A stretch of DNA of 13,076 nucleotides from a virus. Lineage: Duplodnaviria; Heunggongvirae; Uroviricota; Caudoviricetes. Within the stretch, counting starts at the first letter, position 1. Every line of letters starts with the position of its first letter. The position numbers were made by a program, and so were the translations under genes. Under the pieces are notes generated by a model. That model was not told the origin of the DNA. It ran no database searches and worked only from the letters and a program-made list of their open reading frames with translations. The stretch covers positions 1-13,076 of IMG/VR virus record IMGVR_UViG_2778261393_000007. One strand, 5' to 3'. Shown one piece after another: positions 5,520 to 5,871 of this stretch.

Positions 5520-5594
5520 ACAACCCCCTTTGCAACTCTATTTCTATAATTTCGTGATAAAAATTCCAATTATTCACACTATTCCATTTTGATT

Positions 5595-5871
5595 GTGAAC
5601 AGTCGTGAATAGTTAGTGAACAGTTTTTTAATAACTGTTCACTATGTTTTTTAGTTTAAAATCATATGGTTATTTTGTTTCAGTGAACAGTTGAACAGTT
5701 ACCCCCTATAGAATTTAATTTGCAGTGAAAATGATTCACTGTTACAAGTTACAATGCGTTTTAAAAGTTTTAGCCGAAACTGTTCACGGCGTTCATTTCG
5801 TCGATGAATCCAGTAATGACGCAGCTTTTAGAGGTGAACACTACTGTTCACCACTGTTCACCACTGTTCAC
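5595..5871. repeat. P4 type-I-like iterons TGTTCAC(C) in an AT-rich segment; putative ori/crr-like replication site
   Basis: GTGAACA at 5595-5601, 5616-5622, 5683-5689, 5834-5840; TGTTCAC at 5636-5642, 5781-5787, 5845-5851, 5855-5861, 5865-5871 (last three as a 10-bp tandem CACTGTTCAC x3). 12-bp palindrome TAGTGAACAGTT / AACTGTTCACTA at 5614-5625 and 5633-5644. Lies immediately 3' of the primase gene. Confidence 0.7.

Follow-up and report, generated by a model that had tools for sequence, protein, structure and literature searches.

Replication of P4 needs two separated cis sites, ori and crr, the second of which consists of two 120-bp direct repeats. In the P4 GenBank record (NC_001609), "ori type 1 repeats" are annotated in both ori (9310-9413) and crr (4291-4590), where crr starts 46 bp past the stop codon of alpha. 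These repeats read GGTGAACA(GT)/(AC)TGTTCACC, the same unit that recurs in the DNA analyzed here. The Rep proteins of SaPIs recognize their iterons through a C-terminal winged-helix domain, and the helicase is self-loading (Qiao et al. 2022, PMC9371898); in published PICI and SaPI origins, two iteron sets lie on either side of an AT-rich region (PMC6092414; PMC9371898). The pri-ori of EcCICFT073 drives plasmid replication in E. coli, and loss of either part impairs it (Fillol-Salom et al. 2018, PMC6092414); combining the CFT073 primase with its "Primase-Ori" gives a conditional replicon that depends strictly on the primase (Brodel et al. 2024, PMC11338833). Primase-replicase genes have also been reported to flow among satellite families (PMC10085698).

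We analyzed a stretch of 13,076 bp (here called the window), in which the region at ~5569-5871 is very probably the vegetative replication origin (oriV) of a PICI-type satellite in an Enterobacteriaceae chromosome. The architecture of this origin is already described and experimentally validated as that of PICI origins, themselves related to P4 and SaPI origins. Specific to the window locus, as read from its sequence, is a P4-type iteron and binding-domain specificity within a PICI backbone.

From 13076 down to about 2100, the minus strand carries every gene (Table 1). The integrase and the AlpA-type regulator are followed by an AntA antirepressor, an Icd-like/repressor-like ORF, a DUF4222 ORF, the 590-aa initiator, and a 348-bp gap holding the repeats; past the gap lie a 115-aa ORF, a ProQ/FinO protein, a PerC-type activator, DUF2213/protease-like ORFs, and a weak TerS-like HTH protein. 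Gram-negative PICIs have their genes in this order (PMC6092414), and by its gene content (int, alpA, antA, icd-like, DUF4222, pri-rep, ori, perC) the element is a satellite of that type. Near-identical DNA was found in just 6 of 5,426 complete E. coli genomes, as an island adjoining tRNA-Gly. Two adjacent minus-strand ORFs (2630-3301 and 3366-3959) match positions 115-328 and 403-544, respectively, of the 545 positions of phrog_6216, and the first has further matches to DUF2213 and, at a weak level, to a head maturation protease; together they suggest a protease/scaffold-like gene, split or modular, in the island's morphogenesis region. At the far end of the window, two plus-strand genes (1-762 and 753-1244), including one for a DUF3800 protein, have a GC content of 31-39%, below that of the island core, and may be accessory or defence cargo or lie outside the island.

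Table 1. Features of the island and of the putative origin (window coordinates)
Feature	Position	Strand	Remarks
Integrase	11823-13076	-	
AlpA-type regulator	10653-10964	-	
Initiator gene, "DNA primase family protein"	5868-7640	-	590 aa, GTG start
C-terminal origin-binding domain, coding region	5895-6185	-	Residues 486-582, presumed iteron reader
Proximal iteron set	5834-5871		Direct copies 5864-5871, 5854-5861, 5844-5851 (10-bp period) and inverted copy 5834-5841 (GTGTTCAC)
Solitary iteron AACTGTTCACGG	5780-5787	+	Inner edge of proximal side
Central spacer without iterons	5699-5779		81 bp, about 69% AT (20-bp bins), separates both sets
Distal iteron set	5595-5698		5691-5698 and 5683-5690 (8-bp period)
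Distal iteron set, further copies			5635-5642 in opposite orientation; 5616-5623, 5605-5612 (one mismatch), 5595-5602 (10-11 bp period)
Degenerate iteron-like pair ATTATTCAC, ACTATTCCA	5569-5577, 5578-5586	+	Two mismatches each to ACTGTTCAC; 9 bp apart
TGTTCAC readings, minus strand	5595-5602, 5605-5612, 5616-5623, 5683-5690, 5691-5698, 5834-5841	-	
TGTTCAC readings, plus strand	5635-5642, 5780-5787, 5844-5851, 5854-5861, 5864-5871	+	
TerS-like HTH protein, weak match	2099-2623		phrog_57, 1.9e-07

The repeats occupy the gap between the initiator stop codon and the next co-oriented gene at 5519. Over both strands of the whole window, TGTTCAC occurs 11 times against an expectation of 1.70 ± 1.33, a count that none of 200 dinucleotide shuffles of the window reached, and 9 of the 11 copies fall inside the 277 bp of 5595-5871. 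When the intergenic segment was shuffled alone 20,000 times, the maximum was 2. With up to one mismatch to CTGTTCAC, 5595-5871 holds 11 copies (9 exact and 2 with one mismatch) in both orientations, and the conserved unit is aACTGTTCAC(c). The AT content is 66% over 5520-5867, compared to 54% for the whole window, and reaches 80% over 5620-5679. The first-pass annotation, made from the letters of this DNA, had noticed about 10 copies of TGTTCAC/GTGAACA in both orientations in an AT-rich segment, and these counts bear it out. It had also described a 10-bp tandem triplet overlapping the stop codon, which Tandem Repeats Finder reports as well (5839-5871, 3.3 copies, 95% matches; the triplet proper at 5842-5871); the stop codon itself, TGA (5870-5868, minus strand), sits within the first copy. 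Two of its details have to be revised. The cluster had been drawn from 5560, but the first clear iteron begins at 5595; and in place of a 12-bp palindrome the segment has an imperfect 20-bp inverted pair (GGTGAACAC-TA-CTGTTCACC, 5833-5852, one mismatched pair) and inverted 15-nt arms (5614-5628/5630-5644, 93% complementary), with no perfect palindrome of 10 bp or more found in it.

The iterons lie at offsets of about -3, 7, 17, 26, 81, 168, 176, 226, 243, 254, and 264 from the stop codon. The proximal (5780-5871) and distal (5595-5698) sets are mostly opposite in orientation, with spacers of 69-80% AT; because most distal copies are oriented opposite to the proximal set, the two sets converge on the spacer between them. 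The distal set itself encloses a stretch of 80% AT (5643-5682). The central spacer is a candidate melting region, and melting may take place there (5699-5779) or at 5643-5682. Beyond the distal set, the degenerate pair (5569-5586) would be a weak and optional part of the origin; a terminal pair spaced 9 bp is typical of related origins. A DnaA-box-like site, TTATTCACA (5570-5578, plus strand; one mismatch to TTATCCACA), overlaps the first degenerate iteron at the distal edge; its occurrence is at about chance level (~0.08 matches expected in the region scanned). Neither an IHF core nor GATC, both looked for, is present in the segment, and an Rfam scan of the whole window returned no RNA family.

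The segment DNA is conserved only among close E. coli relatives; a search of the phage database with it gave no match, and a full-text literature search for the octamer returned primer sequences only. Among four E. coli relatives (few sequences), the 7-bp iteron cores are almost invariant and substitutions lie in the flanks and spacers, a core-conserved, flank-variable pattern that suggests iterons. The solitary iteron at 5780-5787 is unchanged across the four related elements. In E. coli RM9088 (L087, 8101-8509), there are three tandem TGAACAGT units, compared to two in the window (5683-5698) and in two other strains. Iteron copy number thus varies between strains, RM9088 having one extra 8-bp TGAACAGT unit.

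One could read the cluster as a crr-like cis enhancer, with the true start of replication at an ori in another part of the element. Just downstream of alpha, P4 carries such a region with the same iteron; the first-pass annotation had said as much of crr and of P4-type iterons in both ori and crr, and the GenBank record agrees. We nevertheless consider this reading very unlikely. Neither the window nor the complete relatives L001 and L086 contain a second TGTTCAC cluster, and there is no crr-type direct duplication of 120 bp; between 5400 and 6000 no long direct repeats were found, the longest family being 21 nt at 71% identity. Further, in the PICI homologue the region downstream of the gene is itself the origin (PMC6092414).

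The initiator comprises, in order, a TOPRIM-like N-terminal module, D5_N, an SF3 helicase (DUF5906), and a C-terminal Pox_D5/winged-helix origin-binding domain. Pfam matches are to D5_N (residues 178-280), DUF5906/SF3 helicase (314-415), and Pox_D5 (485-577); the protein also matches phrog_864 "DNA primase" (2e-128) and, below the cut-off, TIGR01613. Among solved structures (phmmer), the P4 alpha origin-binding domain 1KA8 is its best match (E=2e-21, residues 486-582), and the second is 7OLA, the self-loading helicase PriRep5 of SaPI5 (E=2.9e-13), over the helicase and C-terminal domain. From the homology to 1KA8 we infer a winged-helix fold for the C-terminal domain; a single-sequence AlphaFold model of this domain had a pLDDT of 47, too low to use.

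By BLASTP, residues 142-582 of the initiator align with residues 327-769 of P4 alpha at 45% identity (~440 aa), and residues 1-326 of P4 alpha, which contain the zinc motif and the primase, have no counterpart. Residues ~1-141 of the initiator are instead a different, shorter module that is TOPRIM-like by fold only. No Pfam or NCBIfam match covers the N-terminal 130 residues, and the protein shows no recognizable catalytic primase motifs. Because neither the canonical TOPRIM Glu nor the DxD can be made out in the N-terminal sequence, primase activity is unproven; the N-terminus appears to be only a TOPRIM-like remnant, and the label "primase" is likewise unproven. The term "primase-helicase" is only partly justified because the zinc-binding and primase region of P4 alpha is absent.

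By its segment identities, the initiator is a mosaic of three parts. An Escherichia ruysiae protein (L009) is 77-91% identical to residues 1-140; for residues 141-485, the closest proteins are of the CFT073/L016/L007 type (47-80% by segment; 53-80% for L016); and a P4-like alpha from Rahnella (L012) is 81-84% identical to residues 486-582. The N-terminal module is elsewhere joined, in enterobacterial proteins, to D5/SF3, AAA_25 (PF13481), and DUF927 helicases, the last two in E. coli.

To compare the origins of related initiators, we took one genome per species, which gave 80 loci with initiator relatives; at each locus, the ORF was extended to its stop codon and the next 450-500 bp were analyzed. 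About two-thirds of the 80 loci have an 8-mer family of 7-14 copies after the gene, and the remaining loci, mainly of the Xenorhabdus/Photorhabdus group, have 4-6 copies of a less certain motif. The iterons fall into at least 10 classes (TGTTCACC, TGTCTACC, TATCTACC, TCTCTACC, CCCTACC, TGTGCACC, TATACACC/TATACATC, TGTATACC, ATGAACACC, and TGTCCGC), most of them variants of N-T-G-T-N-N-A-C-C. At most loci (L006-L085), ~11 copies stand near +14, 23, 69, 90, 101, 110, 150, 160, 185, 233, and 242 bp from the stop codon, whatever the iteron sequence; the window iterons deviate from this common positional grammar. In each 120-bp unit of P4 crr, the copy spacing (14, 18, 43, and 9) is similar to that of the distal half of the common grammar (10, 25, 48, and 9), and this resemblance hints that crr is a duplicated half-origin.

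Iteron class tracks the C-terminal domain of the initiator better than its helicase core, as a statistical and not an absolute rule. As predictors of class, the C-terminal domain and the helicase core had AUCs of 0.91 and 0.83, respectively, over all pairs, and of 0.85 and 0.66 for pairs with <70% core identity. The nearest neighbor had the same class in 47 of 62 cases by C-terminal domain and in 30 of 62 by helicase core. The C-terminal domains of P4 (44% identical to that of the window) and Ant (44-51% range) share the window's iteron, and some that are 55-66% identical to it (Proteus, Xenorhabdus) use TGTGCACC or TATACATC. Plain percent identity to the window C-terminal domain was also tried as a class sorter and gave no clean sorting; only the class-level statistics and specific swaps were informative.

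The window itself is one such natural swap: its core most resembles (68-72%) that of initiators with CTACC-type iterons, while its C-terminal domain is closest (82%) to the Rahnella alpha (L012), downstream of which the iterons are TGTTCAC. In the reverse case, the C-terminal domains of L009 and L058 are Ant-like, yet their iterons are TGTCTACC. Compared to Ant and L013, which have TGTTCACC iterons, L009, L058, and L073 have near-identical C-terminal domains and iterons of TGTCTACC or TGTCCGC. The main difference among these domains is at window residues ~556-572 (EYQKRKTKNGIRSN versus EYKRAKCTKGVITN versus EYKKAESKKKIQSN). Residues ~556-572, presumably the wing of the winged-helix fold, are put forward as a candidate specificity determinant, and they may set the central two iteron bases. 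At the 90% level, no column of the C-terminal domain has a fixed difference that separates the TGTTCACC class from the CTACC classes. In BLAST comparisons of origin DNA between loci, similarity was confined to the iterons, which gives no sign of origin DNA and domain having moved together as a single conserved block.

Iteron-binding initiators often autoregulate, and the cluster sits between two co-oriented genes. Further, the inverted iteron pair with a T-run is terminator-like, though on the antisense strand, and is the sole terminator-like match of the scan. Each of these points would suit repeats that serve mainly as transcriptional operators, bound by the initiator or another regulator to control read-through or a promoter of the downstream perC/proQ-like genes, without an origin role. 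We regard such a role as highly improbable: the promoter/terminator scan gave no hit on the coding strand, where there is no sigma-70-like promoter, and eleven phased sites over 280 bp around AT-rich DNA are too many for operators. The co-variation of the iterons with the initiator DNA-binding domain and the tested homologue (PMC6092414) both favor replication. Alongside replication, the iterons may have a regulatory side-role. Finally, it is scarcely credible that the repeats act in packaging (as a pac/cos-type site) or in partition and that a small terminase-like or other island DNA-binding protein binds them: terminase small subunits do bind repeat arrays, and the island encodes the weak TerS-like HTH protein, but the site lies 3 kb from that gene, is always attached to the initiator gene despite the very different packaging modules of islands and P4-like elements, and has an iteron class that follows the C-terminal domain of the initiator.

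Recognition of the putative oriV by the 590-aa protein is supported by the match to 1KA8, the P4 repeats, the recurrence and co-variation of iterons among relatives, and the EcCICFT073 replicon. The segment had been taken at first for an origin or a crr read by a 590-aa primase-helicase; the match to 1KA8, the co-variation, and EcCICFT073 favor the origin, the crr alternative is very unlikely, and "primase" stands only in part. By analogy with work on SaPIs, PICIs, and P4, binding, melting, and helicase loading at this locus would proceed as follows. A helper phage would induce the island, and the unidirectional operon running from int and alpA to pri-rep would be expressed. The C-terminal winged-helix domain of the initiator would then bind the ~11 ACTGTTCAC(C) iterons, and the two convergent sets would place initiator oligomers on either side of AT-rich DNA. 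Melting of the AT-rich DNA between or within the sets would let the SF3 (D5-type) helicase ring self-load, and priming and elongation would follow with host Pol III, the primer coming from either the TOPRIM-like N-terminus of the initiator or host DnaG.

These results give a precise origin annotation for a rare E. coli satellite (6 of 5,426 complete genomes) and indicate that a PICI is able to carry a P4-type pair of iteron and binding domain, which links two satellite replicons held distinct in the PICI literature. The current understanding of how such origins work is left unchanged. It is conceivable, though on balance doubtful, that the domain and its iterons form an exchangeable specificity cassette among PICIs, capsid-forming PICIs, and P4-like satellites, and that this island acquired a P4-type one (ACTGTTCACC) that could be cross-recognized by the alpha of a co-resident P4-like satellite, or the reverse. 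If this were true, replicons of two satellite families could cross-activate or be incompatible in one cell; the specificity shared with P4 predicts such cross-talk between satellites. PICI pri-ori pairs already serve as conditional replicons for phage-delivered payloads, and a catalogue of the orthogonal iteron/domain classes (at least 10, this one included) could be a source of conditional origins compatible with one another.

Compared to P4, the window has an identical iteron core (TGTTCACC/ACTGTTCACC), a homologous SF3 helicase with a C-terminal origin-binding domain, and an iteron cluster directly 3' of the alpha/initiator gene. In P4 ori (9310-9360), as in the proximal set of the window, three direct copies precede one inverted copy, but the direct copies of P4 are spaced 10-11 bp with a 14-bp gap before the inverted copy, while those of the window are spaced 10 bp with a 2-bp gap; the proximal grammar of the window resembles P4 ori more than crr. 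Against P4 ori and crr, with which the first-pass annotation had called for an alignment, the window agrees in the octamer and in the ori-like copy order and has neither bipartite sites nor 120-bp repeats. In P4, ori and crr are separated by about 4.5 kb, whereas the window has a single cluster with no 120-bp direct duplication. P4 alpha has ~320 N-terminal residues (zinc motif and primase) where the initiator has a TOPRIM-like module of 140 aa, and no sid/delta/psu-type genes were detected among the window ORFs scanned.

In SaPIs, as here, the origin lies directly after rep, and 6-12 iterons form two opposed groups flanking AT-rich DNA (PMC9371898 and the earlier studies of SaPI origins cited there as refs 25, 28, and 29). 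The SaPI initiator is likewise an SF3 helicase that recognizes the iterons with its C-terminal winged-helix domain, and the window protein is homologous to PriRep5 (7OLA). In contrast, SaPI iterons are 5-6 nt long and unrelated in sequence to those of the window, the hosts are Gram-positive (Staphylococcus), and regulation is divergent and Stl-based, while the window island is unidirectional and of the alpA type.

Among PICIs, the capsid-forming cf-PICI vB_KppS-Ant has an initiator 45% identical to that of the window and nine TGTTCAC copies within 260 bp after its stop codon. EcCICFT073 (L005, 27931-38655) is the prototype and, of the relatives that have been tested, the closest. Its initiator shares 55% identity with that of the window over the whole length and 67-77% in the helicase core (residues 261-485), and its pri gene is followed by a 288-bp gap with about 11 iterons, CTGTCTACC (class TGTCTACC), and no TGTTCAC. 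EcCICFT073 differs from the window in these iterons (CTGTCTACC versus ACTGTTCAC(C)), in its C-terminal DNA-binding domain, which is only about 35% identical, and in the iteron positions, the first iteron of the window overlapping the stop codon. The two share the synteny int, alpA, icd-like, DUF4222, pri, ori, small ORF, and perC, an origin directly 3' of the fused pri-rep gene, and two iteron sets around AT-rich DNA with about 11 copies over ~280 bp. With a single iteron cluster flanking AT-rich DNA 3' of pri-rep, the locus is better placed with the PICI origins than with the bipartite ori and crr of P4.
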